Shown here: one piece after another, positions 6,601 to 56,293 of the stretch
Layout: each line of letters opens with the position of its first letter
Numbering within the stretch: position 1 is the stretch's first letter
Assembly: GCA_951406725.2 (NCBI GenBank)
Contig: OX597830.1
Location: forward strand, 62,124,001 to 62,188,000
DNA: 64,000 nucleotides
Direction of reading: 5' to 3'
Source of the DNA: Octopus vulgaris
Lineage: Eukaryota
Program-made: the position numbers and the translations under genes
Notes under the pieces: model-generated
Databases searched by the model: none
The model's input: only the letters and a program-made list of their open reading frames with translations
Told to the model about the DNA's origin: nothing

Positions 6601-9600
6601 ATGATGATGATGATAATGAATTATGACATTAATTAACGCTTCCTTCCTTTCTCTCCAGGTGGCGTTACTCTCCTCCGTGCTGCTGCAAAGAACTTTGCAC
6701 GTGTTACTGTCATTTGTGACCCTAATGACTATAATGGGTAATGTAGCAATATTAATATAAAATTCTATATTATATAAGTAAATACTTGATGAAGGATTTT
6801 GCACAGTTACATGAGAACCTGTTTCCAAAATGATCCTCTAGTTGCCATGATTTTAAAATTTCGTTTGTATTGATTATAGTTGTTAAGAAGTAAATATATG
6901 GAGTATATTATTGCTGTTGTTAAATATATTATTAGTGTTATGAAGTGTATTAAAGAGTAAAGATTGTTTGCCATCATAACCTGGCAGTCCTGGTTTAGGA
7001 CTAATGTTGCTGTAATTTAGCCCCAGGAGGCATCGTCTCCAGCTGGCTAAACCAGGACTGCCATGTTATGTTGGGAAACAATCTTTACTACAAGGTACTG
7101 TTGCTGAATATCTCACATGAGATTTAAAAATAGTAATTTTGTATTAATGAGGTCCTGACTATTCAGCCAAACAAGTGAAATAGTGAATAGAAAAACTTAG
7201 TAAAGTTTTACTTTGCTGTAAAGACAGAACTCTTCATCGGAAAGAAATGAAATGTTTAATACACTAATGCGTCAATATTCAAGTTTAATTTGTTCCCAGA
7301 GACTGCTTGTAAAGCAGAGCAATAATTTCCCATGATAACAATGATATAAATCGTATTTTGGTCCCAGAAAAATATTTTACTTATAAAATTTATAGTACTT
7401 GTAAATAAATGGCAATAAAACAACAGTAGAATGTAAAGAATATCTTGTGTAAAGCAAAAAGAATGTCAAGATCATTCATAATAAAAAAATATTATAATTA
7501 GAATTGTTTTTTGAATCACATTCCCTTGCACTAGGCTCGTGCACACCATCGCTTGTAGATGCAATTGCCGACTCACAAACATCTGTTGATTTCTTTTTGA
7601 TAAACAATTCTAAAGTTGCTTGCTTAGCTTTTTTCTTTTGCTCTCTATAAATTTCTCGGTAACATGCAGAAGCATTTGTTATGGTTGTAGAAACTCTTGC
7701 ACTTCGTTCGAAATTTGGATCTTGTGCTTGAAAAATTTCCAAGGCTTTATCCAAATGTTGAAACGCTTCCTTGAGTCCTTTAAATGTGAATGCATTAACT
7801 GGCGCTTCTTCAACAGTGTCCTTCTCTTCTATCGTTTCCTGTTCTTGCATTGCAATGAGGTCTTCGTTGGTGAGTTCATCACTATGTGATTGAAGCAGCT
7901 CATCAATATCGCTTGCCGACACATTGAAATTCAATTCATTTGCCAGTTTTACAATTTCTTCTATCTCTTTTTCTACATTTTCTTGTAGTGATTCAAAACC
8001 CTCAAAATCATTAAGAAATTGAGGGCAAAGTTTTTTCCAAATGCCCTTCATATTCTTTTGACTGATATTATCCCAAGCTTTACCTATGATTTTCACTGCA
8101 GTGTAAATATTGTGACTCTTCCAGAATTCCATTAGAGTCGGTCCCCCTTCTTTGACCGTTTCTTCGTTCAACATTGCAAATGTGAGACGTAAATAATGGG
8201 CCTTAAAAGCTGCAATAACCCCCTGGTCCATTGGTTGCAAAAGTGGGGTTGTATTTGGAGGCAAAAAAATAACTTTGACATTAGGATGAAGATGTTTCAG
8301 AATTGGAGGGTGGCTGGGTGCATTGCCAATAAGTAACATTGCATGAAATGGAAGTTGGTTCTTATCGCAATATTCCTTGACTTCCGGCACAAAGTGATAT
8401 GAAAACCATTCTTCAAATAATGTTGCTGTAACCCAAGCTTTTTTATTAGATTTCCATATAACTGGAAGGGTACTTTTTAAGATGCCTTTAAGTGCCCTAG
8501 GGTTCTCCGCTCGATAAACTAGCATTGGTTTCAATTTCAAATCCCCGGATGCATTTCCTCCAAATAATAACGTCACTCGATCTTTTGCAACTTTAAAACC
8601 AGGCCGCGCAGATTCTTCCTTCGCTATGTAACTTCTGGAAGGCATACGTTTCCAGAAAAGTCCGGTTTCATCGACATTAAAGATTAGTTGTGGCACGTAA
8701 CCCCCTTCTTTAATCATTTCTGCCAATGTTTCTGGGAATTTTTCTGCTGCGTCGACATCAGCGCTTAACACTCCTCCTTGCACTTTGATGGAATGCCACC
8801 TGTGGCGATTTTTAAATCGCTCAAACCATCCTCTGCTCGCGACAAAAGTTTCGTTTGTGTCACCTTTCATTTCTTTAAGCATAGTGAAAAGGGACAAAGC
8901 TTTGCTACGAATCGCCGCTCGGTTGACATTCAAATGCATGCGTTGAGTTGTGTCACCTATCCATACATTTAAAAGTTTTTCCATTTCCGGAATAATGCTT
9001 CCAGAATCTCTTTTACGAGACCACGTTGAGTACAAAAGCTGCGCATTTCTCACTTGAGATAAATATTTTTGTTTTTCTTTGAGAATTGTGCAGACAGTTG
9101 AGGAATTAAGTGAAAATTTGTCACTAATGTTCTTCACAGTTGTACCACCATCGTGCATTTTTACAATTTCATACTTCGTTTCCAAAGTGATCGCTTTTCG
9201 TTTCTTTTTCTTCCCGTCGGTGTCCGTTGTACACTTTCGTTTAAGCATATTGGCTGGGCTTAAAAAATGCCGAAAATAATAGTGTAAATAAACGCATACA
9301 ATATAAATATGTGGTACAAAGAATTAGCTTATAATCAAACTGGGGCACCGGACCGTTAATCCATTAATTAACGAAGTTAACATTTTCGCTAACGATTTAA
9401 CTTTTAAGTTAATTCTGGAAATCATTATCGGACTAATTGACTTTCGTTGACTCATGTTAACTTCTGTTGAATTGAAGCTAACGGATTTTATAGTTTTGCC
9501 ACTTTTTAAAGGTGTTTGTAGGTCGTTTTAGAGCCAAAACTCATATTTTTTTTTTCTATAATGGAAATTAACGTTGACGGTTTATCGATAACTTCCGTTA

Positions 9601-12600
9601 CATTGCGAAATAATTAACTGATTAACGGTTATGGAACTTAACTTTTTGGTTAACCGATTAATGATTAATGAAGTTAACTTTCCGATCAACGGTGGGTACG
9701 AGTATCGTAGACTGGTACCCAACGGTGTCCACCTTTGCTTATAATTAATCTCTCAACAATCGCACGCACCGACTCTGAAATTTTAGGCCGTCGTTAACTC
9801 TGTAGTTATTATATGCAGCTGTTAAGACTCGTCAGAACCAGTTTTGCCACACATACACACACACAAAATGGTTAATTAACCTTTTTTATATTTATAAAAT
9901 AAAACTCGTAAACCTGGGGTCTCGTAAAGCGGGTCCTCGTGAAGTGAGGTATTACTGTGCTTCCATAGAATAAGAGAATAAAATAAATTGTGATAGAGAA
10001 AACAATGGCAGGGGAGATAACAAACGAAAATATGTTTTAGGGAGATTATCTCCCTTTCCTTATTTTCGTCCGTATTCCGTTCACTTTGGCTCGGAAGCAT
10101 TTCGGTTCTTTACAACCAAGTGTCGAACCCGTTGTGCGTGCATGTGTGTCTGTGCACGCACGCACACACATATACGCCCGGAAGAACTTTGGGAAAGGCT
10201 TCCGCCCTGTTTTTTTTTTGGGGGGGGGGGACAAAAGGAACTCTTGCCGAACTTTGGATCCCAACCATGTTTCGGTTTCAATCTGACAGTGGTACCTCGG
10301 GCAAGTGGCCTCTATTATAGCCTCGGGTTGACCAAGGCCTTGAGTGGATTTGGTAGATGAAAACTGGATTAAGGTTTAATCTAACACCCGGCCACCAAAG
10401 CAAAAAAAACAAAAAAACAAAACAAGAGTAATAAGTGTAAAAAAAATGTATTAAACAAATATGAAAATAAAAAGTTGTGCTAACGAACTGGAGTGGGGTG
10501 GGACTTTCGGAAAATTCACAAGATCCGATTTTTTCCTTTATAACTTTTAAGAAAATTTTTTTTGATGAAATATTATATAAATATATTTCAAACGGCATAG
10601 ATTACGATTATAAAGAAATTTGTGAGGGAAAATTTTTTTCTGGGGGAGAGGATTTTCGAAGACAAAGCGATTTTTTTTTTTTCACTGCTTGAGTGTAATA
10701 GGAAAAAGTTCGAAAATTTTTTTACATTAATTTATTTTACGTTTGAGTAATAGAAAATTGTTTTGAAAAAGATCCCATGTATCATGATGAGAGAAACAAA
10801 TTCATAAATACGGTGTTAAATATGGTTTCACTATGGAAAAAAGTTAAAGGCGATTTAGCTGTTGTTTTTAGCACGTTTCCACTGCTAGGCAAGAAGAGCT
10901 GTGTTGAAATGATTTTCTGTATAAAAAAAATATATGCGCCTACGTACCCCTCAGAAAAAAAATTTTCAGCCATAAACTTCCTTATAATCGTTATCCATGC
11001 CGTTTGAAAGGTAGTTATATAAAATTTCATTAAAAGATATCCATTTTCCTAAAAGTTATGGAGGGAAAAATTGGATCGTATAAATTTTTTGAAAGTCCTC
11101 TCCTTACCCTCTCAGAAAATAATTTCCTCCGCAAATTTCTTTATAATTGTAAAAGTTATAAAGGGAAAAATTGGATCTTGTGAATTTTCCAAAAGTCCTC
11201 TCCCATCCATTTTGTTAACGCAAATTTTTGTTTTCATATTCGTTTAATACACATTTTTTTACACCTATTACGCTTTTCGCCCCGTTTCGTGTCCGTTGCC
11301 AGCCTTGCCTGGCTCTCGTGCCGGTGGCACATAAAAAGCACCATCCGTTCGTGGCCGTTTGCCAGCTCTGTCTGGCACCAGTGCGGGTGGCACGTAAAAA
11401 GCACCCACTACACTCACGGAGTGGTTGGCGTTAGGAAGGGCATCCAGCCGTAGAAACACTGCCAGATTTGACTGGGCCTGATGAAGCCTTCTGGCTTCAC
11501 AGACCCCAGTAGAACCGTCCAACCCATGCTAGCATGGAAAGCGGACGCTAAACGATGATGATGATGATGTTAAAGTAAACTCTCTTTACTCTTTTATTTG
11601 TTTGTTTACTTGGCCATGCTGGAGCACCACCTTTAATCAAGGATCTCGACCCCGGGACTTATTCTTTTGTAAGCCCAGTACTTATTCTATCGGTCTGTTT
11701 TGCCGAACCGCTAAGTAACGGGTACATAAACACACCAGCATCGGTTGTCAAGCAATGCTAGGGGGACAAACAGACACGCAAACATATACACACACACACA
11801 CATATATATACATATATACGACGGGCTTCTTTCAGTTTCCGTCTACCAAATCCACTCACAAGGCTTTGGTTGGCCCGAGGCTATAGTAGAAGACACTTGC
11901 CCAAGATGCTATGCAGTGGGACTGAACCCGTAACCATGTGGTTGGTAAACAAGCTACTTACCACACAGCCACTCCTGCGCCTACAATAACTGTAAACTGA
12001 AAGAAGCCTATTGTGTGTGTGTTACAGCTTCCTTGCCTTGTTATCGCATGATAGCTGTAAACAAGCCTCACTGTTATGCAGGCGGTGTCTCTTGTTTTCT
12101 TCTAGTCTTCTGAGACCTGTCTTGTCATGGAGAAACATTACTTCGAAACAGGTGGGGATTGACAACAGGTAGGGCTTCTGATTATAGAAAAACTGCCTCT
12201 ACAAATTCTGCACGACCCGTGCTAGCATTGAAAAGTGGACATTCAAACAGGGATGCTGATTCTATCTCAACACTTTTAGGTACTCGATTACTCTTCAATA
12301 TTTAACCATTCCAGTATAAGGCAGCAAGCTGGCAGAATCATTAGCACACTGGACAAAGTGCTTAGCAGCATTTTCAACTTTTGGGGAGGTGGAGTTAACA
12401 AAACATGGACCAGTTGACCTCTATCCCCATCCCCCAAAATTTCTGGCCTTGTTCCAAAATTTAAGCCCAATATTTTACCATTCAAACAGAGTGTCTGTTG
12501 CCAAAAGTTAAGGACAATTGTTTCAGAGATAAGAACTCTGTGCTCCTTTAAAAATGCGCTACTTAGCTCGGTATTCACAACTGGATTGCACTTTTATCTT

Positions 12601-12902
12601 TTAGCTGAGGTGTTGATGTTAGATTATCCTAGTTTGTTTCCCCAGTTTCTCTTTGTGTCTTTGGTTCCTCCCTGAAATACATGCCCAGACCTGGTTGTGT
12701 GGTTAGGAAGCTTGCTTCCCAACCATGCGATATTGGGTTCAACCCCACTGAACAGAACTCTGGGTCAGTATCTTCTGCTGTATCTCTGGGTTGAATAAAG
12801 CCTTTTGAGTGGATTTTGGTAGGTGGAAACTGAAAGAAGTCTGTCATGTGTCTGTCTATATGGGTTCTTTATGTGTGTGGGTGTGTAATATAATATATAT
12901 AC

Positions 12903-12940
<38 letters not shown>

Positions 12941-15900
12941 GGCAAAATGTCTATGTGTGTGTGTCCTTTATACAAATCCACAATTTTTCAGTTAGAGGGC
13001 TCGCACTTTCTATGGTCATTCAAAACCGTCCAAGGGTGGTCGTGCACATCTTTACATTTCCCCAGTCACCCCGCAAAGCCATTAAAAAATCAATAAAGTG
13101 ACTTTTTTGTGAATTTTCTATACAAAACCCAATCAAAATGCCCGAAACTTGATACGCCAATTGAATGCCAGCTAACTGTATGTGATTGGTCGGAGATTTG
13201 GACAGTACTCGCGTGTATGTGCGCACGCACGCAGCTGTATATGCATGCACTAGCACTATGACCCGGCAACACCGGGTCACAGTGCTGGTATATGTATATA
13301 TGCATAAAATTTCACACCCAACTTGTGCCAGCATGGGAAATGGACTTTAGATAATGATTTTGCATATCATGTCTGTCTGTGGGAAATATCATCTACCATC
13401 TTGCTTAGAAACAGGTGAGGCTTGACAACAGAAAGGCACTTGACCATATTAAATTTACCTAAAACAAGATCCATCTGATGCATGCAAGCATGAAAAAGTG
13501 GATGTTAAAACAACAATGATGCTGGTAAAACCTTGAGAGCAGTAAGACAAATAGAACTGAACTAACAATGAATTATTGTTCCTTAGATTTTTTTTTTTTT
13601 AATCCTTTTCCAGAATAATTGAAGAAATGAAGAACTCTCCAACTAAAGATTCAACCCTTGAAACCAGAAAAAGACTTGCTGTGAAGGTGAGACATTCCTC
13701 CTTTATTCTTTTAGTTGTTTCAATCATTTGACTGCGGCCATGCTGGAGTATCGTCTTTCGTCGAGTAAATCAATCCCAGGATTTATTCTTTGTAAGCCTA
13801 GTACTTGCTCTATCGGTCTCTCTTGCCGAACCACTAAGTGACGGAGGCGTAAACACACCACCATCGGTTGTCAAGCGATATTGGAAGGACAAACACCGAC
13901 ACACAAACATATACACACACACATATATATATCGACAGGCTATTTTCAGTTTCCGTCTACCAAATCCACTCACAAGGCTTTGGTCAGCCCAAGGCTATAG
14001 TAGAAGACACTTGCTACTTACCACACAGCCACTCCTGCACCTGTTGGCGTTTATTTAAAGATGTTGCTAGGTTTAAGTATTTCGTTTCCCAAACTTGTGG
14101 TTTCAGGTTCAGTCCTACAGCATGGTACTTTGGGCAGAGTGTATTCTGCTGCACTCCTGCACTGACCAAAGCCTTCAACAAAATACTTCATTTTATATAG
14201 CTCTGCGATCACTTCACCTGATGCATGGTACACAATGCAACCATTCAGACAATGTCACTTTTGATGGACAGAGTGACCTAACATGTGGCACAAACATTTG
14301 ACCACAAATCACAGGTCATTCAGCAAAAGCTGATCGCTCGTACATTGTCTTCGACAGGAGAGTCCATCATGAGTGTGTGTGGATGTGTGTCTGGACATCT
14401 TCATTATGATGCAATCAATGTCATTCATTCCCAGTCTTCCATGAAAGGCATGTCCAGCTGTGGAAATTATTACCTTGCTTGGAAACATGTGAGGGTTGAC
14501 AACTGAAAGGCCCATCGAAGTGTTGAAAATCTGCCACAACAACTTTCACCTGATTCTTATTTCTTTATTGCCCACAAGGGGCCAAACATAGAGGAGACCA
14601 ACAAGGACAGACAAAGGGATTAAGTCGATTACATCGACCCTAGTGTGTAACTGGTACTTAATTTATCAACCCCCGAAAGGATGAAAGGTAAAGTTGACCT
14701 CGGCGGAATTTGAACTCGGAACACAAAGACAGAGAAAATACTGCAAAGCATTTCACCCGGCTTGCTTACGTTTCTGCCAGCTCACCACCTTTCACCTGAC
14801 TCTTGCAAGCATGAAAAAGTGGGCATGAAATGATGCAGATGTTCCTAAATTTTATGCATGCCTTCTTTATTTGCAGGCTTTCAACCATACAGCAGATTAC
14901 GATGCTGCTATTTCTGATTACTTCCGGAAGCAGTTTAGCCAGAATGTTTCCCACTTACCCCTGCGCTATGGTATGAACCCTCATCAGAAACCAGCACAGC
15001 TCTTTACCAATTTGTCAGAATTACCTTTGAAAGGTAAATGTTCTTCAATCTATCCAAAAACCTGTTTCAGTTGGTGATTCTCTCTTGAAGATTTCAGTCT
15101 CAATTCTAAAATAACATGGCAAGGCTATCCCTGCCATCATTGCACTTAAGTTCTACGCTCCCTGTAGAGCATATGCCATTAGCTTTTCTCTACTGTTCTT
15201 GACTCTGAGTTGTTGGGAGCCACACCCTCAGTATGTGGGAGTCCCTGAGAGAGTGATCCTTCCTCTCCCAGGTTTTGGTTTTGATTTATCTTCGATGCTC
15301 CTCTACCTTTGCCTTTTTACTAATTACAGGTATTCATCTTATGCAAATGCAATTTATCACTTCAAAAGGGTGGTCTCTCTTAGACTGGCCTCTGTTTTTT
15401 TACCTGTCCTGTATGGGAGACCCTACTAGGAGCTGACACTCTGCTGGCATGTATCTCAGGTATTATTTGGCCATACAAGCCACAACATCACAACAAGCAC
15501 TGGTAGGGATGTTGGCTGTATGTAAACTCATTTTTACCTCTGGAAAGGGATGGGCCATATTAGCATGGCTTACAGGCCCACCACACCACAGCAAGGACTT
15601 GTCCTTGTGGTCAGCCCACCGTCATCATCACTACCCTCTAAACCCCCTGAATTAGTGTTTGGGAATCTAGGACTCTAATTATAAATAAAATATTCTAATC
15701 TTGTGTAGGATACTCATTACAGGTGGTATTATGTAGACACCCACAAACTCTTCCTTCACCCCAATTATTTTCTACAGGTCATTCAGCCTACAAGGAATAA
15801 CTGAAGCCCTTTCAATTCTTCTATCTAGAAATGTCTCCTTTTTATTTCAGTTGATTTAAGAAATAATAAAGAAAATAGTGATTTTGTTGTTAAGCTCATT

Positions 15901-18900
15901 TTAGAAATTTTACCTGTGCTGGTGGCACGTAAAAAGCACCAACCGATCGTGGCCGCTGCTAGACTCCCCTGGCACCTGTGCCGGTGGCATGTAAAAAGCA
16001 CCCACTACACTCATGGAGTGGTTGGCTTTAGGAAGGTCATCCAGCCATAGAAACACTGCCAGATCAGACTGGAGCCTGGTGCAGCCTTCCTGGCTTCCCA
16101 GATCTCCGGTCGAACCATCCAACCCATGCTATCATGGAAAATGGACGTTAAACAATGATGATGATGATGAGAACGGAGAGGTGGGTTGTTATCAAAATGG
16201 TTCGATTACATCTTTTCTAAAAGATATGAATAAAATGACACACATTGGATAATACAGTCCTAGATACATTGTGCCTGAATAATAAACAGGAGAATCATGA
16301 ATAGATTGTCTTTGGTGGTAGATTTGCATTCCTAAGACTGATTTGGTGATAAATTTAGGATCTGGAATTAATGGAGTTTCTTTTTGTTGCAGTTGTAAAT
16401 GGCTCCCCTGGATTTATCAATCTCTGTGATGCTTTAAATGCTTGGCAATTGGTGAAAGAACTGAAAAATGCTCTTGGTTTGCCAGCAGCAACCTCGTTTA
16501 AACATGTCAGCCCTGCAGGTATGATCTTTGGCTCTACTTAGAATTTGCTCAATAATAGCTGTGCGTGTGTGTGTATGTATTCATTTTTATCTTGTGTTAA
16601 CATTGAAAAAATTGTAAAAGCATTTCATTATTCAAGCAGAGTCCCTCATTTGCAGTCTTCCCTGTAAACTAAACATATCTGATCAAGTATATTATTTACA
16701 TTTGATGGATATTTGTCCTCGTCTTGTTTGTTGTTAACACGTTTCGGCTAATATACCCTCCAGCCTTTGTCAGGTGTCTTGGGGAAATTTCGAACCTGGG
16801 TTCTCATTCCAAAGGTATTTTTCGATGTTGTTGCTGCTGCTGTTGTTCAAGTCACTGCCTGGAATTGAACTCGGAATATTGGGGTTAGTAGCCCACATTC
16901 TTAACCACCATACCATATGTCCATCAGCCGAAACGTTGTGTTAACAACAAACAAAATGAGGACAAATATCTGTCACAAGTTAATAATGTATACAATTCCT
17001 CATCTCTTAAATATAGAACTGTATTATGTGTGATCTAGGACAAATATTATCTTCCTTGGGAACAGATGAACGCTGGCAATAGAAAAGGCATTTAGCCGTA
17101 GGAAATCTGCTTCAACAAATTCCATCTGACCAATACAAAGATGGAAAAGTGAATGTTAAAATGAAAAAGAGAAGACAAAAAAAACAGAAGCCATATGTCT
17201 GTGTTGTAAAATGCCTTCCTTGTCTTCAGAAAGTTTATTGAATTTCAAGGACTGAAATTTTCTTTGTAATAAATACAGTGTAACCTAAGGAGGGTTCAGT
17301 TCTCACCAAATCAAGTCTCCAGGTTCCATATCAGTTCCTGACTGTTCTATTGATATCATTATTGATCCTAAAGAGAAGGCATGATGATCATCCCTTCCCA
17401 ATTCTTCTGAAACCTCTAATCTGTGAAATTTCTTTCGGAGTTTTATATTCTTCTGAAGGACTCTCATAATGCTTCTCTAAGCAGGATCTTCTGTCTTATG
17501 AAGATCTTGTGTAGAAGAACCACGAGATCTAAACATGTAAGAATCCATTATACCCAAATGATTGTGTTTTGGTCTTCTTCTTTTTTTCTTTTTCTTCTTC
17601 AATGTTGTTTGTCTATTTTATCCTCAGGTGCTGCAGTAGCCACACCCCTCAGTCCAGAACAGGCTCAACTGTGTATGGTAGATGATCTGAAGGAACTGAG
17701 TCCCCTTGCTGTTGCTTATGCAAGGGCCCGTGGTGAGTATATTAAACAAGCCCTGATATATTATATCAGGGAAATCCAAACTCTTGTAGAAGGGCCCCAT
17801 GTATATTTATGTTCAAGGGCTACAAGACATGTTTATGTCTTGTTGTTCTTCAGGGGTTATAGGTTTAAAATTAGGAGTAAGAAAAGACAACTCTGCATGA
17901 AGGTTGGTACATAATTCAGTTTCTTTCAACAAATTTTATTCAACAAAATCAATAACATCATCATCATCATCATCATTTAGCGTCCGTTTTCCATGCTAGC
18001 ATGGGTTGGACGGTTTAACTGGGGTCTGTGAAGCCGGAAGGCTTCATCAGGCCCAGTCAGATTTGGCAGTGTTTCTACGGCTGGATGCCCTTCCTAACAC
18101 CAACCACTCCGTGAGTGTAGTGGGTGTTTTTTATGTGCCACCTGCACAGGTGCCAGACAGAGCTGGCACAACGGCCACGAACGGATGGTGCTTTCACTTG
18201 TCAAAAAACTTTAAATGATTATTCTGGAGCATATTCACCATCTACTTCAATTACTGCTCCCATTTGCTTGGCAGACTGTCAGGCCATCATTTAAAGATGT
18301 TTTTGTTGAATAAAATTTATAGAAAAAAATTCGCAGTAATTCTGCACCAACCGAATAGTTTTGCAGGCTGAACTAGATTGGTTAATCTCTACTTATTGAA
18401 GGTCTTTGACTTTGTTGAGTCTGAATTTTCACAGCTAATTCTTTGAAATCTGGCTGGTGTGATATGAAAGCCATTTCCAAGTAATGTAGTTCTGCAAAGA
18501 CATTCATTGGGTTTCTTTTAGTTCCCATCTACCAAATCTACTCACAAGGTTTTGGTCAGCCCAGGGCTATAGTAGAAGGCACTTGTCCAAGGTACCTTGC
18601 AGTGGGATTGAACCCAAAGCCATGTGACTGGGAAACACACTTAACTATACTGCCATTTTACTATAATAGAAAAAATTCTATTCAACACATACTTCGGGCA
18701 TGAAGTTAAGATGCTGAGTATTTAATCACATGATTAGGAGTTCAAGCCAACCTATCTCAATTTGCCAATCTGATCTTCTTAATTCATTGAACTGTTAACA
18801 ACAACAGGAGTCGTAGGTGAATTTCCAATGTTTCCTTCTCCTGCACAAATCACTGTGACCAATCCTTCGTCAGATCTTCCTACTCTCCCACTGGAATCTT

Positions 18901-19833
18901 CTCCCTGCAGGGGTTGCCCAGCAACAGCTTAAACAAAATGTAAACAGCCTCAAGTTTACCAATCTTAAAGGGTCAGCAAGTGCCATGGGCCCTGCCCCTG
19001 TCTTCCACACACAGCAACTTAAGAATAAATAATTCTGTTTGATTTCTCCAACCAAATTCTAACTTTGATTCCGTTTACGTTCTTTATAGGAGCTGACCGC
19101 ATGTCATCATTTGGGGACTTCATTGCCCTTTCTGAACCCTGTGATGTCCCAACAGCTAAAGTCATATCAAGAGAGGTATTTGCGTCTTTTTTTTTTTTTT
19201 TTTTGTTTTTTTTTTGTGTGTGTGTGGAATGACTTTAAAACAGGAATTCTAATTTAAAAAACCACCCTTTAAAATTTTTTTGCACCCCCTCACCCTCTTT
19301 TCAGCTACGGAGAGTACAAATCAGCAAAACAAATTGGCAAAAGTCTGCATTTTTAAATTACCCCCCACCCCCATTTTTAAGAATTGTTTTTTTTTCTAAA
19401 TATGCGAGAAAATTGGACATTATGATTCAGACAAAAATTTCAAAACATTTGGGGGGAAAAGTCAAAATTGAAGGAAGGTGGGTAACGATGCTGATTTTTG
19501 GCAATTTTGTACATACTTAAATCTATACGTATATATGCATATGTCGGCACAGGATGTCACAAAAGTGCCAAACAAAATAGTACGAAGCACAACTATTCTT
19601 TTGAACAATGAAAGACTCAAATGGAAAACAAAGCAAACAACATAATGAAGGGACCCTTCATCAGTTGTTGGCTGTTTTTCTAGTCTCATATTTCAAGTAT
19701 TTAACAACAATATACGCTTTCAATAAAACATTTGGCCCTGCAAAGCAAATTAAATAAAATTGGGGATTTTGCCGAGGGTCAAAATAGGTAACATAAACAG
19801 GACAGTGAAAACAAATATGTGTGTGTGTGTAGG

Positions 19834-19871
<38 letters not shown>

Positions 19872-22800
19872 ATCCGTTAGCTATGAAACCTGTCTAGCCT
19901 GGATTTTATCTATTCCAGTCTCTAAAATATGTTATAAATAAATTGAAACATTTTCATCACTCTGAAATCCTTAAACATTTTTCATGTTTTTATTTTATTT
20001 TTTGTCTGGTGGGGAGTTGGTATATAAATTTTTATTTCGTTGTTTGATTCAGAATTGTCAAAGTATGGAATTAAACTACTGTTGTTCTCAGGACATTGCC
20101 TCCTTCAAATTCCCCAAAATTCCTCTTGTTACACCAAAGCCCTTTCTCCCCTAAGACTCTTTTACTGTTCCCTTTTCTCTATTTTTATGTTTTATTCTGT
20201 GTACGTGCTTTTGGCTCTCACTGCTGCCTTTATTTCCTTGACTTTATATCTCTGCTTTCTGTTCCCTCTTTTTGAACCTTTCTAATAATTTGGAGCACAC
20301 CAAAGAACTACATATAATAAACTCAATATTATTAACCTCGAGTTCAAATTTTGCCGAGGTCGATTTTGCCCTTTATCCTTTCAGGGTCGACACAATCAAC
20401 TATAAACCTCCGCCAAATACAGGTTTTGTATCCATAGTAGAAAGGGTTATTAGTGGTAACCTTCAAAATCTCATGGCCCTCAATTTAAAATGCAGAGTTA
20501 CCTGCTCTTTGAAAAAAAAATTGCTGTTTTCTGCGCATGCGTCAGTCTACAGTCCTCGGTCTCTTCCTGTCTCCTTTGGCTATATAAAGCCTCGTCTCCC
20601 TTCTTTCTCTCTTTCGCGATCTCTCGACCGGTGAGTAAACGTCTCCTCTGACTCGATTTCTCAGAACACGTGGGATATTTCTTTGCTTCACAGTATTTAG
20701 TCCCTGGAATTCTGAGAATCAGGCGATAAAACACCTCGTTTCTCATTTCATTTTGCTAACTACAATTATATATGCATACACGTGTATTTCTCTGGAATAT
20801 ATTGCGTATGATAAATAAGTGGTTTACATAAAAAAGATCTTGGGGAGTATTTTTTTTTTAAATTAGGAAAAAAAATTCATACGTGTTTTATACTAATTTT
20901 TTTTTTTATTTTACGGGTATATGTGCATGTTTTGGTGCATTTTATTATAAATAAAAAAGATGCCGAGAAGCATTTTTCGAGGGTGTGGATTACGACTAGA
21001 AGGCTAAAAATCGGGAAAAGATATTCTGGAGAATGCTCGGAATCATTCTCTCATTTTACTCGGATTTATGCGTTCATCTCATTGATATCCATCTTCGAGG
21101 GTAGACTACGTAATTTTCATATTTCAAACAGATCTAAAGGGTGAGGAGAGTAAAAATAAAGTTTGATGGCAACGAGATCGATTGAAGGGTTTTGATAATC
21201 CGAAACCTTTTTCCCTCCAAATTTTATTCGTCCGATTATAATCCTGCATCTTACCACGTTGTATCTACCAAATTTGATGAGTAAATATGCAGATTATCGG
21301 ATATGTGTGAGGAAACTACCAGTGGGGCACTAAACTGTAGTTAGACACTTTACCTTGTATATTTAGGTTAATTTACTGGTTCTTTCCATATATAAAGTTT
21401 AGGAGCGTGAAAACAAAAAGGCACCATGATATTGTTTCAGTCTCTTCCCATCCAATTCCCATTTTATAAGTTTGGTATCAATTTGTTTTTTCTTTTGATC
21501 AATGTTTGTAACATTATTAAAACATCAGCTTTATTGTAAAGCGAACATAGATGATTGTTTTCCGACCTCGTGGTGACCACCCGCTTTGAGATTTTCGACT
21601 TGGATGTTTGCTCGATGCTCTACCAACCATCTGTCGCTTGTATAGTTTATTGCAAATCCCATTAAATGATTAACAATCATTGTTTTAATTGAGAAGTTTA
21701 ATTTTCTTCCATGATTTTTAAAGCGACCGGGCGGGGTGAACCCTGCTTATAAATACTAATCTACAGTTTAGTCCTAAGTGCTAAAATATTTAGGCCAAAT
21801 CTGATGGTCGAGTGGGGCATTGTTGTCTTTGCTCTGTTTTACGACGCTGAGATGATTGAAAATTCATTCAAACGTAGTGTTCATTCTTGTTTTGGCGAAG
21901 GTAAGGAATACGCACACTCGGTATTTAGGGTTAGGGGGTGCTGTTTAAGAAGAGTGGTCCCGGTGCGCGTAGTCGCGCATCCGCTAGCTAGTCCTGACTA
22001 ATTGATACTACGACTACCTAGCAAAGTAAATAAAACACAAAAATAATTTTTTTACACAAAGGATCGACTAGACATGACTAGGTAGCGCGGATGAGCGAGT
22101 GCGCGCACCGGGACCACTCTTAAATAGTACCGGGTGAGGGATTTTGTTACGCTGAAAACTTGTGGTGTGCGTATTCTTTACCGCCGCCCTTGTTTTTTTT
22201 AATATTTTCTAACACGTTTCCTAGCTTTTATCAATCACTTTAGTAACTGGGGCCTTATAAAAAGGTTTTGTGTTTCTCACCGTATGAAGCAGGGATATTT
22301 GAGACTGTTAATCTGCATGGGTAGAGGGCTTAAGCTGATTTACCACTGTAACCCTCCAGGTGATTATTGGCATCTCACTGTTCTGAAGCAGCTACTTGTA
22401 TAAACTTTTTTTTCACGGATATATATATATATATAAAACTTTAAACTTCCAAATTGATTTCAGTAATTCTTTCTCTCTTTCTAAGGTCTCAGACGGTGTC
22501 ATCGCTCCTGGATACGAGGCTGATGCGCTTGCAATTCTCAAGAAGAAAAAGGGTGGCAACTATTGTGTGTTACAGGTAGGGGATATTGTTTTACCTGTTC
22601 TTCTGATTGACGTCTATATTTCAGGTGTGGGGAGATGATGATATTCTACATGCGTGTCAACTGACCCCTCGTGTCACAGAAATGTGGTCAGTTCTTGGCT
22701 GCATTCCCTGTCCACGGGTGGCTGATCATAACACATTATTCTGATCCCCTTTGCTATTAATTTCTTGCTTAATTGTTAATTAGTTTGTAAGGTAAATCCT

Positions 22801-25800
22801 ATTTTCTACAGCTTATTTAGTTGCTGGTGTGGTGCCGTTTCGTTATTACCTTAATTTTTCTGTTCTTTAGAACTTTATTTTTTTTTCTTTTCACTTTGGC
22901 TGATCCTGTGATTATTGCTTTTCAGATTGACCCCAACTATGATGCCCCTCCTGTGGAAACCAGAACTTTGTTCGGGTTGCAGATGCAGCAACTCCGTAAT
23001 AATGCTCCTATTACTAAAGATCTCTTCAATAACCTGGTGACCAATGGTAAGACGGTGAGTGTTATTTTGCGCAGTGCAGCTTTATTGGATTCTGAGCACT
23101 TTTGTCTCAAGACTTGGAAGTTTGCATAGGGGTTAATGAAATCCTTGAAGGATATTTCCTTTCATGTAATGGTATTGAAACCAAATTTCTAAAGCTGGAG
23201 GTGTTGGTAGGGCCTGCTCTATCGATTGAAAAGGAAAAAAATTTTTATAAGAAACAATTTCTTGGATCCCCTGACCTGACCCCTCTTGATTTCTAACTTT
23301 GGGGTGCATTTGAAAGGTATGGAGTTTCGCAGAAAGATAAGACCAATCGTTTGAAGGAACGCATCACCACTTCATTGCAAGTTGTTACAATGGTGTTTCG
23401 TGCCTATTCTTGAAAAATGCTTTTGAGTTGCATGTGCTTGTTAGTTCGCTGAGGTCTGTAAACAAAATCAAAAATTTAAATTATAGAGTGGGGTGAAATA
23501 AAACAAAGAGGAGAGATGCAGAACTGCATTACCCCCATTAAAAGAAAAATTTTTCCTATGTAAAGCGACCTTTGAATCACCCTGTAGAATGTAGTTGTAA
23601 GAGTGAAAATGTCCATTTTAAGAAAATTGTGTTCATTTGACAACTGATCCATGCTAGAATGAGTTGGACGTTGTGGCAAGATCTGGTGAGTCACAAGTCA
23701 TACTCGGTGTTAGTTGTTGTGCTGGCATGGATGGAGTTGCCAAGTGATTTGCAAATATAACAATGGAAGGGGACTCCTGGTCAGAGTGACCTTTGGTGTG
23801 GTGAGGGATGAGTGCTTTACGTTCCTGTTTAATATGTTTGGTGAGGATTTTGCCTTCCCTTCATAGTTATCGTGTCCCTTTCTCTCTGCATGTTGCAAGA
23901 TGAGATTAATAATGGTCAGTTTCTTGTTGCAGCTTCCTGATTCTGCTATCCGTGATTTGTTGGTGGCTTCCATCGCTCTGAAGTATACCCAGTCTAACTC
24001 TGTTTGCTATGCTCGTGACGGACAGGTACAGTTGCTTTGCTCTTTCTCTTTCTCTTTCTGACTTTCCTCCTCTTTGATAGGCTGTGTCAATCTGGGTATT
24101 CAAAACGGGTTTCTCTGGTTAATTTTTTAGGTGATAGGCATCGGTGCTGGCCAGCAATCGCGAATCCATTGTACACGGTTGGCTGGAGACAAGGCTGACA
24201 ACTGGTGAGTATCAGTTTTCTGGTTGATTTCTTTGGAGAACTGTGATGATTTCTTCTTCTGATTTCATTATGGAGATATGTGAAGAGGCTGTATCTGAGT
24301 TCTGACCAAACCTTATATTATTCCAATTGTTTGTTGTGGTTTCACCCCGTCATTCATCTACTGTAGGCATTAATTTCTTATATTTCTGTTCCCCCAGGTG
24401 GTTGCGTCAGCATCCTAATGTTCTTGGCTTGAAATTCAAGAAGGGTGTGAAACGAGCAGAAATGTCCAATGCTATTGATTGTTATGTTCTTGGAACTGTT
24501 GGAGAGGTATGTTGAGATCTTCAGCTTATTTAGTCATTTGGGATTTATGACTCAAAGCCTATGTTTTGATGTGCATTTGAAACCATCTTTTCTTTTTTTG
24601 TCTTGTTGCAGGATATGAAACTTTCAACTTGGGAAGATCTTTTTGAAGTCCGTCCACCAGAGTTGACAGAGGTTTGTGTATATTGCTTTATTCCACCGTT
24701 TTAGAGATTTTGAGGCAAGGTAGAATTCCTGTGGATTCTTTCTGATTCAACACTCTTGGACCATTTTGCTGTCTTTCAAACAGTGTCATAGAATCAGGTG
24801 GATTACTCTTACTTGTTTCAGTCATTTGACTGCGGCCATACTGGAGCACTGCCTTTAATCGAGCAACTCGACCCCGGGACTTATTCTATCGGTCTGTTTT
24901 GCCGAACCGCTAAGTAACGGGGACATAAACACACTAGCATCGGTTGTCAAGCAATGCTAGGGGTACAAACAGACACACATGCATATATATATATATATAC
25001 GACGGATTGGTATTAAAAGGATCAAAACACTAATCCTAGAAGCTGAATTCTTGCTATGTCTGTTTTACAAAGCTACAATTTCACTTTGCTTCTTAGCTGC
25101 CATACTGAAACATTTCACTAGAAAGTATTTTTGCCTTTATTATTGTAACAAGATGGGTTTTCTAGTCTCTAGTTACTGCGTTGTGACTGTCATTGTTGAT
25201 CTGGGTCACATTTTAATTGTTTAGGTTGTTTCATTATCCATCAAGTTCTGACTGTCAGTTAACTGGAGGCTACCCTTGCTTGTTGTTTGCAATCACCTGA
25301 AAGCCTTCTATCAAGATTTTATGTTTTGGTTCCTACACTCATTTTGCTAAATTTTCAAAGACAGCATGTTTTAGGAGCTGGATGCTTAGAAAGGGGTGAG
25401 TTTTGGAATCCAAACTTCTAGGCTAGGTACACTGTTTTCAGTTATTGATAAGCAGAATGGATGACAGGATCAGATGCATTTTCATTGTATGTCCTTGCTT
25501 TCTTTAATTTGTATATATTTTGGGGTGGGTAATGAACCCCTATTCAGTTAAGGGGAGTTTAGGACTTCAAAAGTACACAACTTGAAAATTTCTGATTGTT
25601 TTAATGGTGACTTTTTTTGCTCTAAATTTCAGAAAGATCGTATTAATTGGATAGCAAGCCTAGACGGAGTCTCTCTGAGTTCTGATGCCTTCTTCCCTTT
25701 CAGGGACAATATAGATCGTGCCTACCGGGTATGTAATAGCATATATTCCACATTCGTCTCATTTAAGTGAACTCATGATGAAAGTTTAGTCTCGTTCGTG

Positions 25801-26065
25801 TGACGGTGATTCTTCTGGAGTTGCCTCTGAACACACTTATCATTTCTGAAGTTTACTCAAATATTTTTGTTGATTTCTGGAATTTTCTTTTTAAGATGCA
25901 GTTAATTTTGTTTTAAACTTTTTTTTTTCTTCTTGTTTGTTTCAGAGTGGAGTGAGGTACATTGCCTCTCCTGCTGGTTCTGCTAACGATGCGGTCGTTA
26001 TTGAAGCTTGCGACGGCCTTGGCATTGCTTTGGCACACACCAATCTGCGTCTGTTCCATCATTAA
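599..26065 (+). CDS. ATIC: Bifunctional AICAR transformylase/IMP cyclohydrolase (ATIC/purH), multi-exon gene, 5'-partial (17 coding exons in window, 1630 nt)
   Basis: GT-AG exons join in frame and translate to hallmark motifs [96 protein letters not shown] and HTNLRLFHH*. Confidence 0.98.
2031..2097 (+). CDS. ATIC: ATIC exon ([23 protein letters not shown])
   Basis: tttccag|ga ... cg|gtatgt; 67 nt; phases match neighbours. Confidence 0.93.
3220..3437. mobile_element. piggyBac-like MITE
   Basis: TTAA|CCCTTTCATTACC ... GGTATCGAAAGGG|TTAA. Confidence 0.75.
4602..4690 (+). CDS. ATIC: ATIC exon ([29 protein letters not shown])
   Basis: ccctag|t ... atag|gtaaga; 89 nt. Confidence 0.96.
6190..6615 (+). 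mobile_element. Retroposon with (GAT)n tail and ~55-nt internal tandem units; copies at 3895-4240, 5040-5295, 11280-11570, 15910-16170 and 17958-18195(-)
   Basis: Repeated gtgccggtggcac(g/a)taaaaagcacc units followed by GGCGTTAGGAAGGGCATCCAGCCGTAGAAA...GATGATGAT. Confidence 0.75.
6659..6737 (+). CDS. ATIC: ATIC exon ([26 protein letters not shown])
   Basis: ctccag|gt ... gg|gtaatg; 79 nt. Confidence 0.95.
7476..9248 (-). CDS. Tigger/pogo (CENP-B-like, TIGD-like) transposase-derived protein, 590 aa, nested antisense in an ATIC intron
   Basis: Uninterrupted ORF with N-terminal KKKRK and CENP-B-type HTH motifs ([11 protein letters not shown]; [15 protein letters not shown]). DDE_1 motifs [33 protein letters not shown] and [25 protein letters not shown]; spacing is DD32D-type. 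Confidence 0.95.
   Translation of the reverse strand: MLKRKCTTDTDGKKKKRKAITLETKYEIVKMHDGGTTVKNISDKFSLNSSTVCTILKEKQKYLSQVRNAQLLYSTWSRKRDSGSIIPEMEKLLNVWIGDTTQRMHLNVNRAAIRSKALSLFTMLKEMKGDTNETFVASRGWFERFKNRHRWHSIKVQGGVLSADVDAAEKFPETLAEMIKEGGYVPQLIFNVDETGLFWKRMPSRSYIAKEESARPGFKVAKDRVTLLFGGNASGDLKLKPMLVYRAENPRALKGILKSTLPVIWKSNKKAWVTATLFEEWFSYHFVPEVKEYCDKNQLPFHAMLLIGNAPSHPPILKHLHPNVKVIFLPPNTTPLLQPMDQGVIAAFKAHYLRLTFAMLNEETVKEGGPTLMEFWKSHNIYTAVKIIGKAWDNISQKNMKGIWKKLCPQFLNDFEGFESLQENVEKEIEEIVKLANELNFNVSASDIDELLQSHSDELTNEDLIAMQEQETIEEKDTVEEAPVNAFTFKGLKEAFQHLDKALEIFQAQDPNFERSARVSTTITNASACYREIYREQKKKAKQATLELFIKKKSTDVCESAIASTSDGVHEPSARECDSKNNSNYNIFLL
9336..9737. mobile_element. hAT-like MITE inserted upstream of the Tigger ORF
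   Basis: Imperfect TIRs CAAACTGGGGCACCG / CGGTGTCCACCTTTG; perfect 8-bp TSD CTTATAAT (9328-9335, 9738-9745); internal GTTAAC subrepeats. Confidence 0.8.
10477..11222. mobile_element. Foldback MITE with long TIRs
   Basis: ggactttcggaaaattcacaagatccgattttttcctttataactttta (10501-) is inverted at ~11150-11198; internal subrepeats. Confidence 0.65.
12930..13288 (+). mobile_element. Non-autonomous Helitron-like element (second copy)
   Basis: High identity to 45307-45682; hairpin tgacccgg/ccgggtca, ends CTGG|T. Confidence 0.72.
13614..13686 (+). CDS. ATIC: ATIC exon ([24 protein letters not shown])
   Basis: ttttccag|a ... aag|gtgaga; 73 nt. Confidence 0.93.
14877..15033 (+). CDS. ATIC: ATIC exon ([20 protein letters not shown]...[24 protein letters not shown])
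   Basis: ttgcag|gct ... aaag|gtaaat; 157 nt. Confidence 0.97.
16393..16518 (+). CDS. ATIC: ATIC exon ([41 protein letters not shown])
   Basis: ttgcag|tt ... gcag|gtatga; 126 nt; contains the catalytic Lys-His pair of the transformylase domain. Confidence 0.97.
17628..17732 (+). CDS. ATIC: ATIC exon ([35 protein letters not shown])
   Basis: cctcag|gt ... cgtg|gtgagt; 105 nt. Confidence 0.96.
19090..19175 (+). CDS. ATIC: ATIC exon ([29 protein letters not shown])
   Basis: tttatag|ga ... gag|gtattt; 86 nt. Confidence 0.96.
20532..20636 (+). promoter_or_regulatory. Intronic TATA + TCT (5'TOP) promoter with ~20-nt non-coding first exon and 5' splice site
   Basis: TGCGCATGCG (NRF1-like) at 20532; TATATAAA at 20581-20588; pyrimidine tract with CT-C(+1)TTTC ~30 nt downstream (20609-20615); exon ends ...GACCG|GTGAGT at 20630/20631; locally CpG-retaining. 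Confidence 0.75.
21894..22188. mobile_element. Palindromic MITE, Merlin-like (GG termini, 8-bp TSD)
   Basis: GGCGAAGGTAAGGAATACGCACAC / GTGTGCGTATTCTTTACCGCCGCC; inner IR aagagtggtcccggtgcgcg/cgcgcaccgggaccactctt; CTTGTTTT duplicated at 21886-21893 and 22189-22196. Confidence 0.7.
22280..22390 (+). ncRNA. Candidate orphan box C/D RNA with long internal hairpin
   Basis: C-box variant ATGAAGC 22284-22290 and CTGA 22383-22386; internal stems GAGA.TGTTAAT/ATTGGCATCTC and GAGGG/CCCTC; ends 99 nt upstream of the 3' splice site; weak terminal stem. Confidence 0.4.
22486..22575 (+). CDS. ATIC: ATIC exon ([30 protein letters not shown])
   Basis: ttctaag|gtc ... cag|gtaggg; 90 nt. Confidence 0.96.
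22629..22749 (+). ncRNA. SNORD10: Box C/D snoRNA, SNORD10/mgU6-77-like (guides U6 Cm77 and the 28S Cm3808-equivalent)
   Basis: Terminal stem GGGGA/TCCCC; C box ATGATGA 22635-22641; D box CTGA 22741-22744. Guide CATGCGTGTCA(A) before D' CTGA (22661-22664) is complementary to U6 UGACACGCA (5th nt lands on C77) and to 28S UGACGCGCAUG. Confidence 0.88.
22926..23054 (+). CDS. ATIC: ATIC exon ([26 protein letters not shown]...NGKT)
   Basis: tttcag|att ... acg|gtgagt; 129 nt. Confidence 0.95.
23641..23868 (+). ncRNA. Candidate H/ACA-like structured intronic RNA
   Basis: Hairpins CAACTGA/TTAGTTG (with TTGTGGC/GTCACAA) and TGGCA/TGCCA; H-box-like ATATAA 23755-23760; 8-bp stem GAAGGGGA/TTCCCTTC followed by ATA; ~65 nt upstream of the 3' splice site. 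Confidence 0.4.
23933..24025 (+). CDS. ATIC: ATIC exon ([31 protein letters not shown])
   Basis: ttgcag|ctt ... cag|gtacag; 93 nt. Confidence 0.96.
24131..24204 (+). CDS. ATIC: ATIC exon ([24 protein letters not shown])
   Basis: tttttag|gtg ... tg|gtgagt; 74 nt. Confidence 0.96.
24237..24303 (+). ncRNA. Box C/D snoRNA, predicted guide for the 28S Am2815-equivalent (human SNORD95 target)
   Basis: Terminal stem AGAAC/GTTCT; C box GTGATGA 24243-24249; D box CTGA 24295-24298. AGAGGCTGT is antisense to 28S ACAGCCUCU with D+5 on the A. Lies 94 nt upstream of the 3' splice site. Confidence 0.78.
24398..24506 (+). CDS. ATIC: ATIC exon ([36 protein letters not shown])
   Basis: cccccag|g ... gag|gtatgt; 109 nt. 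Confidence 0.96.
24612..24671 (+). CDS. ATIC: ATIC exon ([20 protein letters not shown])
   Basis: ttgcag|gat ... gag|gtttgt; 60 nt. Confidence 0.9.
25633..25728 (+). CDS. ATIC: ATIC exon ([32 protein letters not shown])
   Basis: tttcag|aaa ... cgg|gtatgt; 96 nt. Confidence 0.96.
25764..25839 (+). ncRNA. Box C/D snoRNA, predicted guide for the 18S Am1383-equivalent
   Basis: Stem TAAGTG/CACTTA; C box ATGATGA 25775-25781; 12-nt guide AGTCTCGTTCGT (25788-25799) antisense to 18S ACGAACGAGACU; D' GTGA; C' GTGATTC; D box CTGA 25827-25830. Confidence 0.87.
25946..26065 (+). CDS. ATIC: ATIC last coding exon ([39 protein letters not shown])
   Basis: tttcag|agt ... TAA at 26063-26065; 120 nt. Confidence 0.97.
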
Positions 26066-26143
26066 TTCTCCACCAATACTGAATCTCTCTCTGTTCGTGT
26101 TTTTCTAACCAATGATTTCCATAACTTTTTTTTTTCCTTTTCA

Positions 26144-26149
26144 AATAAA
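26144..26149 (+). terminator. Polyadenylation signal of ATIC
   Basis: AATAAA ~80 nt after the stop codon, followed by T/GT-rich sequence. Confidence 0.7.
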
Positions 26150-26299
26150 AGTATTCAAACTCATTAATGTTTGAATTTGTAGACTTCATTTTGCACTTTA
26201 AACGAGTAGTCTCCCTTAGCTATGCTGTAGTTATTTCCCTTGGATTAGAAACCAGGAATCTGGTGCCATTGGCCTTCACAATTTGTCCAACGACAGCTG

Positions 26300-27480
26300 A
26301 GAACACATGACTTCACTTAATTATTCCTATGACATGACTAAGGCTGTCTTCAGAGTGATATCTTTGAGAAATTCTTGAAGCGTCCCTTTCTCGAATGGAC
26401 CAAATAGCGAGGTCCGAAGGGTTGGCGTCTGGGGTGGAAGTGTTGTCCCAGGACCCACTGAAGTGGCTTCTGTATGACTGCTGTGTTGCATCTGACATAG
26501 GTTGACTGTCATTTTGTGCGAACACAATTGTCTACACATTTTTCGGCCATCTGCGGCAAAATGTCTTCATGTAAATTGACTTCCATTTTCTCTTAACCCT
26601 TTCATTACTATATTTCTGACCAAAATACACCCCTTATGTGTTTCAATTAATTTCTAACATAGTCATAAATTTAGTCTGGTTTCATTAAACAACTATAGCT
26701 TTTTTATTTATCAATATATTAATCTGATTTTTGGAAGATAGTTTAATGAAATGTTCTCAACCAGTTCTATACAATTTTTGTCACAAGGTGACTCTAATTG
26801 CAGGTAGATACAGGTAAATTCAACAAAACATAAAATTATTAAAATTTTGTTCAAACATCGCTATAGAAAATGGGTTATTAGCTAATATTCAATTGTCAGA
26901 ATTACAAATTTTGAAAACACAATAGGAACAAATTTCGGGAAAAAAAATCTCCCAAAATTCACGGAATTAAAATTATACTTCGATCGTTGTACTAAACTGT
27001 AGATGAACTGTTTACGAAGTATAATCACGTGTTTTCACGAATGTACTAAAGAGATTTGCTCTGATATTCTCATTTAAATATGAATAGGTAAATACGGGCG
27101 GCTTGGTCACATGAACCAAAATTTTGTTTGGGCGGTTTGGTAACGAAAGGGTTAGTGAACACCAGAGATTTTTGAGTATTGGATGATACTGCCATCACTC
27201 CGGGTTTCATTCATTGAAACACCTTGGAGGTGCCTTCAGGAACAGCATCCAGCTTCATAGACAAGATCTTGTTCTGGTTTGCTATAGCCTTCACAGTGAA
27301 TGTCTTTTTGTCCAGCTAGATGGAGACATTGTCACTGATGTTCTGAATCTCCTCTGCCAATTCCTTGCACCTTGTCTGGAAGCAGTTGAAATTAGGTGTT
27401 GACAATTTTGATGACTTACAACCCATTGCATGATTGTCTGGGAGATATTGAGACTTTTAGCCATTTGCCTTGTGTTTCTC
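26300..27480 (-). pseudogene. Degraded Tc1/mariner (maT/DD37D-like) transposase
   Basis: - strand remnants LDKKTFTVKAIANQN (cf. SDEKIFTV), KPGVMAVSS..KSLVF and SHFSGSWD..TPDANPSDLAIWSIRE (cf. SPDLNPLDFAIWSILE); stops and frameshifts. Confidence 0.7.
26597..27151. mobile_element. piggyBac-like MITE inserted in a transposase relic
   Basis: TTAA|CCCTTTCATTAC ... GTAACGAAAGGG|TTAG; same termini as the 3220-3437 element. Confidence 0.7.
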
Positions 27481-56113: not shown

Positions 56114-56152
<39 letters not shown>

Positions 56153-56251
56153 GATTATTATTAACCACTATGCCATATGCCCATGGCGTAGTGGTTAAGA
56201 CCGCGGGCTACTAACCCCAAGATTCCGAGTTCGATTCCAGGTGGTGACCTG

Positions 56252-56293
<42 letters not shown>

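Follow-up and report, generated by a model that had tools for sequence, protein, structure and literature searches.

A TCT promoter predicted inside an ATIC intron of Octopus vulgaris may turn the 3′ half of the gene into a host transcript for three C/D snoRNAs

The levels of small nucleolar RNAs (snoRNAs) often do not follow those of their host mRNAs, and the mechanisms in the literature compared are alternative splicing with nonsense-mediated decay (NMD), twin starts within one promoter, and alternative promoters of unspecified kind. The ATIC gene of Octopus vulgaris, examined here in a 64,000-nt stretch of genomic DNA (C17:62124001-62188000, hereafter the window), raises the question of whether three C/D snoRNAs in the 3′ introns of a metabolic gene might be supplied separately from its enzyme. 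We think it probable that a working promoter lies within one ATIC intron. On balance, and with less assurance, we favor a model in which this TCT promoter starts a short isoform that would be spliced to the exon at 22486, release the snoRNAs, and leave an unstable remainder. The composite-motif and snoRNA scans covered 83.7 kb on both strands, and copy-number matching was run against the whole 2.8-Gb genome.

The host gene is ATIC. Its joined exons make an open 584-aa frame, ATIC exon 14877 matches Pfam AICARFT_IMPCHas, and GT..AG joints in contigs from public runs bridge 10 of the introns. Exon 2 (-214..-88 relative to the window start) and a putative exon 1, approximately 5.9 kb before the window, were assigned by eye, for a total of 18 introns. 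Six of the seven junctions among the last eight coding exons were seen as GT..AG joints, and the final one was placed from sequence.
22486-22575, 22926-23054, 23933-24025, and 24131-24204, plus strand: four of the last eight ATIC coding exons, common to the full-length and predicted short isoforms
24398-24506, 24612-24671, 25633-25728, and 25946-26065, plus strand: the other four, likewise common to both isoforms
26144..26149, plus strand: AATAAA poly(A) signal, the sole AATAAA in 26000-26600

The ATIC intron at 19176-22485 holds an internal cluster of promoter-like motifs that ends in a splice donor, and the features predicted from it are as follows.
20532..20541, plus strand: NRF1-like motif TGCGCATGCG; single copy within the window
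20581..20588, plus strand: TATA box TATATAAA, one of 33 window copies on both strands
20601..20615, plus strand: TCT (polypyrimidine) initiator by consensus match, predicted +1 at C20607 or C20609
20609..20630, plus strand: predicted 5′ terminal oligopyrimidine (TOP) first exon, 22 nt, from sequence; absent from the contigs listed
20631..22485, plus strand: intron 1 of the short isoform as predicted from splice-site ranks, taking up the 3′ portion of the ATIC intron

The NRF1-like motif, TATA box, pyrimidine tract, and donor at 20631 were each found where an earlier reading of the DNA letters (the sequence-only reading) had placed them, and the short exon ending at that donor is free of ATG, as it had claimed. 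The TCT consensus in its human form (YC+1TYTYY) was matched perfectly with +1 at 20603, 20607, or 20609, and the fly consensus YYC+1TTTYY with +1 at 20603 (PMC5580651). The start proposed earlier, a C at approximately 20609-20611, therefore agrees with the consensus at 20609, where the letters are CTCTTTC, and fails at the last base for 20611. The TATA box sits 26 to 28 nt ahead of the matches at 20607/20609. Scored with a matrix built from ATIC's own donors, the site at 20631 ranked first among the 181 GTs of the intron (10.1, with true ATIC donors spanning 5.6-11.3), and the acceptor at 22486 ranked first among the 89 AGs downstream of it. The donors ranked second and third both fall inside a miniature inverted-repeat transposable element (MITE), which the sequence-only reading had overlooked.
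21894..22188, strand not assigned: MITE-like element whose inverted repeats measure 24 nt (terminal) and 35 nt (inner)

Copies of this repeat occur in the upstream DNA, and the element adds two strong cryptic donors (21901 and 22134) to the intron. The motif DNA itself is single-copy, with one genome match each for 20480-20760 and 20720-21900, so the dispersed-repeat origin that the sequence-only reading had named as grounds for dismissing the cluster can be set aside. The TATA-TCT-donor composite occurred once in the 83.7 kb and in none of 60 gene-wide or 3,000 local shuffles; the pattern was composed after the site had been seen, and the shuffles consequently overstate its rarity. A genome-wide NRF1-TATA-TCT pattern yielded no positive control: it had 35 matches versus 7 for the reversed pattern, and the 30 matches that were fetched resembled, by eye, mostly microsatellite or SINE edges.

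The cluster marks the beginning of an approximately 1.5-kb CpG island.
20453..21936, strand not assigned: CpG-undepleted island, single-copy, likely an unmethylated promoter region

The observed/expected (o/e) CpG ratio of the island was 1.04. Non-repeat introns in 11600-20339 gave 0.22, a difference with a Fisher p of 3e-15, and the 5′ half of the island's own intron gave 0.38 (p 1e-5). Along the ATIC body, non-repeat introns gave 0.22-0.29, and the putative main promoter region gave 1.03. In octopus, methylation marks expressed genes along their bodies, and promoters and transposons carry little of it (PMC9476566); on that basis the undepleted island within the depleted ATIC body can be taken for a promoter that has long been unmethylated. 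Another CpG-undepleted block was noted at approximately 7400-11600 in a long ATIC intron, where a putative minus-strand DNA transposon was recognized by eye.

Four ribosomal-protein loci served as controls, namely RPS3A, RPL13 on C27, RPS23, and a second copy of RPL13 on C29. In the first three of these, a pyrimidine initiator stands within a CpG-undepleted island, the control starts being themselves predictions; RPS23 was named from its peptide. The RPL13 gene on C27 carries in addition a TATA-like stretch and a short exon without ATG that ends in GTGAGT. In the C29 copy neither a candidate first exon nor such an initiator was found.

The scan for snoRNAs required C and D boxes, a stem at the ends, and 10 or more guide pairs to this genome's 18S, 28S, 5.8S, U2, or U6 RNA, leaving out U1, U4, U5, and the minor small nuclear RNAs as targets. 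Exactly three guide-bearing C/D snoRNAs were obtained, one in each of the ATIC introns at 22576-22925, 24205-24397, and 25729-25945. All three lie behind the predicted internal start, in agreement with the claim that all convincing snoRNAs are downstream of it.
22630..22748, plus strand: C/D snoRNA, SNORD10 homologue (Rfam RF01290, 34.3 bits, E 3e-4)
24238..24302, plus strand: C/D snoRNA whose D guide forms 10 Watson-Crick pairs with 28S A2484; it lies 100 nt ahead of the acceptor
25768..25856, plus strand: C/D snoRNA whose D′ guide forms 11 Watson-Crick pairs with 18S A1890; it lies 97 nt ahead of the acceptor

The three are also bounded more narrowly, at 22635-22744, 24243-24298, and 25775-25849. 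When the 5.4 kb behind the predicted promoter was shuffled 1,000 times, 979 shuffles contained no such snoRNA, 20 contained one, 1 contained two, and 0 contained three. For the snoRNA at 25768-25856, which has an 8-bp terminal stem, the guide word also occurs in the plant Rfam snoZ43 consensus, and we take 18S A1890 to be the human A1383/SNORD30 site. The D′ guide of the snoRNA at 24238-24302 aligns to the SNORD36 consensus. The 22630-22748 RNA shares with SNORD10 its C box, its 28S and U6 sites (the D′ guide pairs over 11 bp at 28S C3400 and over 9 bp at U6 C77), a guide identical to the RF01290 consensus, and a long internal hairpin. Because 34.3 bits is below the RF01290 gathering score of 37, it was filed as a homologue and not as an Rfam-grade member; at the gathering threshold, Rfam returned no snoRNA in the window. 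SNORD10 guides human 28S C3787 (PMC5027482), to which C3400 would correspond when the two sites are equated through the common guide.

The zebrafish host of SNORD10 is eif4a1a (PMC6954239), whereas here the host is ATIC. Elsewhere in the octopus genome the guide had one match, on C9, which is a candidate only. The C box-guide-D′ layout recurs in 55 metagenome loci, none of which (many being short) contained ATIC. For host naming, 8 of 11 loci supplied the ORF pieces that were submitted (140 of 304), and at six of the eight loci tested the neighboring exons belonged to cyclophilin, RPS8, BET, DEAD-box, or vigilin genes. Since the hosts in other eukaryotes differ and ATIC was found at none of the 55 loci, ATIC is probably a lineage-specific host.

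Several other candidates were rejected. The single-copy sequence at 17381-17457, upstream of the cluster, has perfect C, D′, and D boxes, lacks a 10-bp guide to rRNA, U2, or U6, and failed the stem filter; it gives a weak Rfam snoR1 match and may be an orphan snoRNA or due to chance. Pairings of 10 bp at 21847 and 22900 were without a C box, and none of eight structural candidates for H/ACA snoRNAs was convincing.

On the joined 20630-22486 form we reproduced the reading frame described earlier, in which the first ATG (22523) is out of frame and opens 55 codons ending at TGA 23038-23040. The in-frame ATG at 22983 had been missed.
22523..23040, plus strand: 55-aa ORF, out of frame, that the predicted short isoform would carry across one junction of the joined sequence
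22983..22985, plus strand: earliest in-frame ATG, the fourth in the predicted short isoform, opening a 207-aa C-terminal ATIC frame

That the stop precedes several junctions was borne out: six follow position 23040, five of them at more than 50 nt and the nearest at only 14 nt. The geometry thus conforms to the 50-nt rule for NMD at five junctions, and decay of the predicted short isoform is plausible.

Under the model that we favor, RNA polymerase II would start at C20607/20609, inside ATIC, and the 22-nt 5′TOP exon would be spliced onto 22486 and the last eight ATIC exons, bypassing 26 kb of introns that are rich in transposons. The three snoRNAs would be freed as the seven downstream introns are spliced out. 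Ribosomes would open the out-of-frame ORF and stop five junctions early, and for this reason we propose that the spliced leftover is degraded, probably by NMD. The supply of snoRNAs could in this way be set by a ribosomal-protein-type promoter without more ATIC enzyme being made.

The RNA data bearing on the model were assembled contigs from four studies, presumed to be RNA, and contigs cannot show transcript starts. Each of the four studies has unspliced contigs over parts of 20623-21516, which shows that this stretch is transcribed, from a promoter that the contigs do not specify. Spliced full-length ATIC was present among the contigs, and all three snoRNAs are also released from the full-length ATIC pre-mRNA. 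Contigs of three runs additionally cover 23558-23840. Because contig depth cannot rank the parts of a gene and holes prove nothing, the depth patterns were not counted as evidence. These patterns, which would point to an internal start, comprise exon-contig depths of 39.6 upstream and 71.5-152.7 from 22486 onward in run X1, 303-331 and then 576-623 in X2, and one flat contig each in X5 and X12. The unspliced contig of X1 ends at 20623, with no more than some 57 nt at the same depth remaining in the bin; X1 is the sole study with an end there, and X12 ends at 20660. Of the 21 non-exonic pieces listed, 18 lie in 20623-25945, one is upstream (9% mismatches), and two are past the gene. Three of the upstream repeat-free bins were at a residual depth of 0-1.5, and the bin at 19142-19575 was at 6-20 in all runs.

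A number of results weigh against the favored model, and several of them would fit a gene with no working second promoter, in which the motifs are due to chance or were left by an old insertion, and ATIC is a protein-coding snoRNA host of the usual kind with a single promoter. We consider this explanation unlikely. Pyrimidine runs near GTRAG are common (1-3 per 6-8 kb), the composite pattern was fitted post hoc, and the NRF1-like motif was present at none of the four ribosomal-protein loci scanned. The transposon block in ATIC has a CpG o/e of 1.02, equal to that of the island, and with octopus transposons being unmethylated an old insertion could mimic such an island. In three of the four runs (X2, X5, and X12) one contig crosses exon 22486 unbranched. 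By intron count, the chance of all three snoRNAs falling in the last 7-8 of 18 introns is 0.04-0.07, so that their downstream placement is suggestive but not decisive. Set against this explanation, the island is single-copy and begins at the motif cluster, and coincidence would have to account for the TATA-TCT spacing, the donor rank, and the resemblance to the promoters of ribosomal-protein genes alike. What stands of the sequence-only reading is a TCT consensus at TATA distance, within a single-copy island, ahead of all three snoRNAs; its NRF1-like element is the part that found no parallel in the ribosomal-protein loci.

If the promoter is real, its RNA might remain mostly unspliced at 20631, use another acceptor (e.g., 20694, which scores 8.6), or end within the intron, leaving the snoRNAs to come mainly from full-length pre-mRNA. 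We rate this outcome as improbable. It agrees with the contigs listed for this stretch, which are all unspliced (20623-21516 in X1, and others), with the five AATAAA/ATTAAA words in 20631-22485, and with the frequent intron retention in multi-snoRNA hosts (PMC4233243). The 20630-22486 joint was not among the joints listed (15 of 377), and the ordinary 19175-22486 joint of ATIC was likewise not among them. However, the best donor of the intron and the best acceptor are those of the predicted splice, and a 22-nt exon, being below the assumed 31-letter contig word, could be invisible in contigs. The spliced short isoform might instead be a stable mRNA for the 207-aa C-terminal fragment of ATIC, with three out-of-frame ATGs scanned past and snoRNA release as a by-product. 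The weak context of ATG 22523 and the open frame from 22983 are in keeping with it and count against decay; in addition, we found no literature on NMD rules in molluscs. We nevertheless judge a stable mRNA to be very unlikely, as the three out-of-frame ATGs come first, one of them with A at -3, their frame overlaps the in-frame ATG, and the fragment would begin only at residue 378 of 584. It would lack the cyclohydrolase domain and the catalytic Lys-His motif. Having weighed these explanations, we retain the short, decaying isoform as the favored model. The fuller proposition, that a snoRNA host gene arose within a functioning enzyme gene, with an intronic TCT promoter that puts the coding exons of ATIC, out of frame, to use as a throwaway scaffold for splicing and yields the greater part of the three conserved guides, is tentative, and we would put it somewhat short of an even chance.

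TCT starts and NMD are known traits of snoRNA hosts (PMC6954239, PMC4233243). Like GAS5 and UHG/SNHG1, the predicted isoform would have a TCT/TOP start, a first exon of short length, several C/D snoRNAs in its introns (here three, in three introns), a short ORF, and predicted NMD (PMC6954239, PMC4233243). Those hosts are stand-alone genes with noncoding exons of their own, whereas eight of the nine exons here are coding ATIC exons. For that reason the isoform is not a member of the GAS5/UHG type, and the earlier label "GAS5/UHG-like" holds as a working analogy only. The absence of a long ORF applies to the first frame, of 55 aa, but not to the 207-aa frame from the fourth ATG.

Dual-initiation (YR/YC) promoters likewise use a TCT start that uncouples a snoRNA from the host protein, but their two starts are mostly 30 nt or less apart, in one promoter and with the same exons (Nepal et al. 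2020, PMC6954239; Fafard-Couture et al. 2021, PMC8176728). Zebrafish atic is described as YR-only and human ATIC as dual and YR-dominant (PMC6954239). In the octopus gene, unlike dual initiation, the TCT lies approximately 26.5 kb inside the gene and would cover only the snoRNA-bearing half. U17HG/SNHG3 is spliced jointly into RCC1; its host exons are upstream and noncoding, whereas in the octopus gene the predicted TOP exon is internal, and coding exons flank the snoRNAs. The likeness is that of a noncoding TOP host tied to a protein-coding gene, RCC1 (PMC7601244). NMD splice isoforms of protein-coding hosts also provide a snoRNA without protein from a nonsense isoform of host exons, but by alternative splicing from the normal promoter and not by an internal one (Lykke-Andersen et al. 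2014, PMC4233243). SCARNA28 is an intronic guide RNA made both from its host and from an intronic promoter (PMC13736004), a promoter for one RNA, whereas here a spliced multi-exon host would serve three. Reviews refer to alternative promoters of snoRNA hosts in general terms (PMC13736004, PMC11028025). In the literature compared, which included excerpts of PMC1821038, PMC13532657, and PMC6619189, this architecture was not found described; subscription papers were outside that scope, and host-gene tables in supplements might list ATIC or similar internal starts. The predicted internal promoter would be a new variation on the known uncoupling of host and snoRNA.

If the model is correct, a separate TCT promoter midway in a metabolic gene would add one more mechanism of such uncoupling, and one that is easy to test. 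It would account for the settling of mobile snoRNAs in hosts that have no TOP start. The predicted genome-wide signature is an internal CpG island with a TCT initiator upstream of the snoRNA-bearing introns, and 3′ exon counts of such genes would overestimate enzyme mRNA. On the fuller proposition, the promoter would constitute an undescribed route by which snoRNAs that jumped into an unrelated housekeeping gene are returned to ribosome-type control, and similar hidden promoters may be frequent among snoRNA-bearing genes with no TOP start.

Among minor features of the locus, two unused donor-like sites, 23686 (score 9.8) and 25396 (10.4), lie in 3′ ATIC introns without a good upstream acceptor. 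Outside ATIC, 56151-56252 has a C/D-like fold with a 10-bp stem and no guide. The intron with the motif cluster also contains a possible snoRNA relic.
21711..21804, plus strand: possible decayed C/D snoRNA copy with one-base-bulged guides to 18S C2449 and U2

This sequence had no Rfam snoRNA match, and intact copies of its 18S C2449 guide are found on C11. There, at C11:40632000-40646000, an RPS23 gene with a TOP-type first exon is followed by snoRNA copies in seemingly duplicated blocks, three with the 18S C2449 guide and three of a snoRNA that pairs near 28S 3410. A further copy of the 18S C2449-guide snoRNA, at C15:68487506-68487530 on the minus strand, has an A-run end beside a SINE and looks retroposed.

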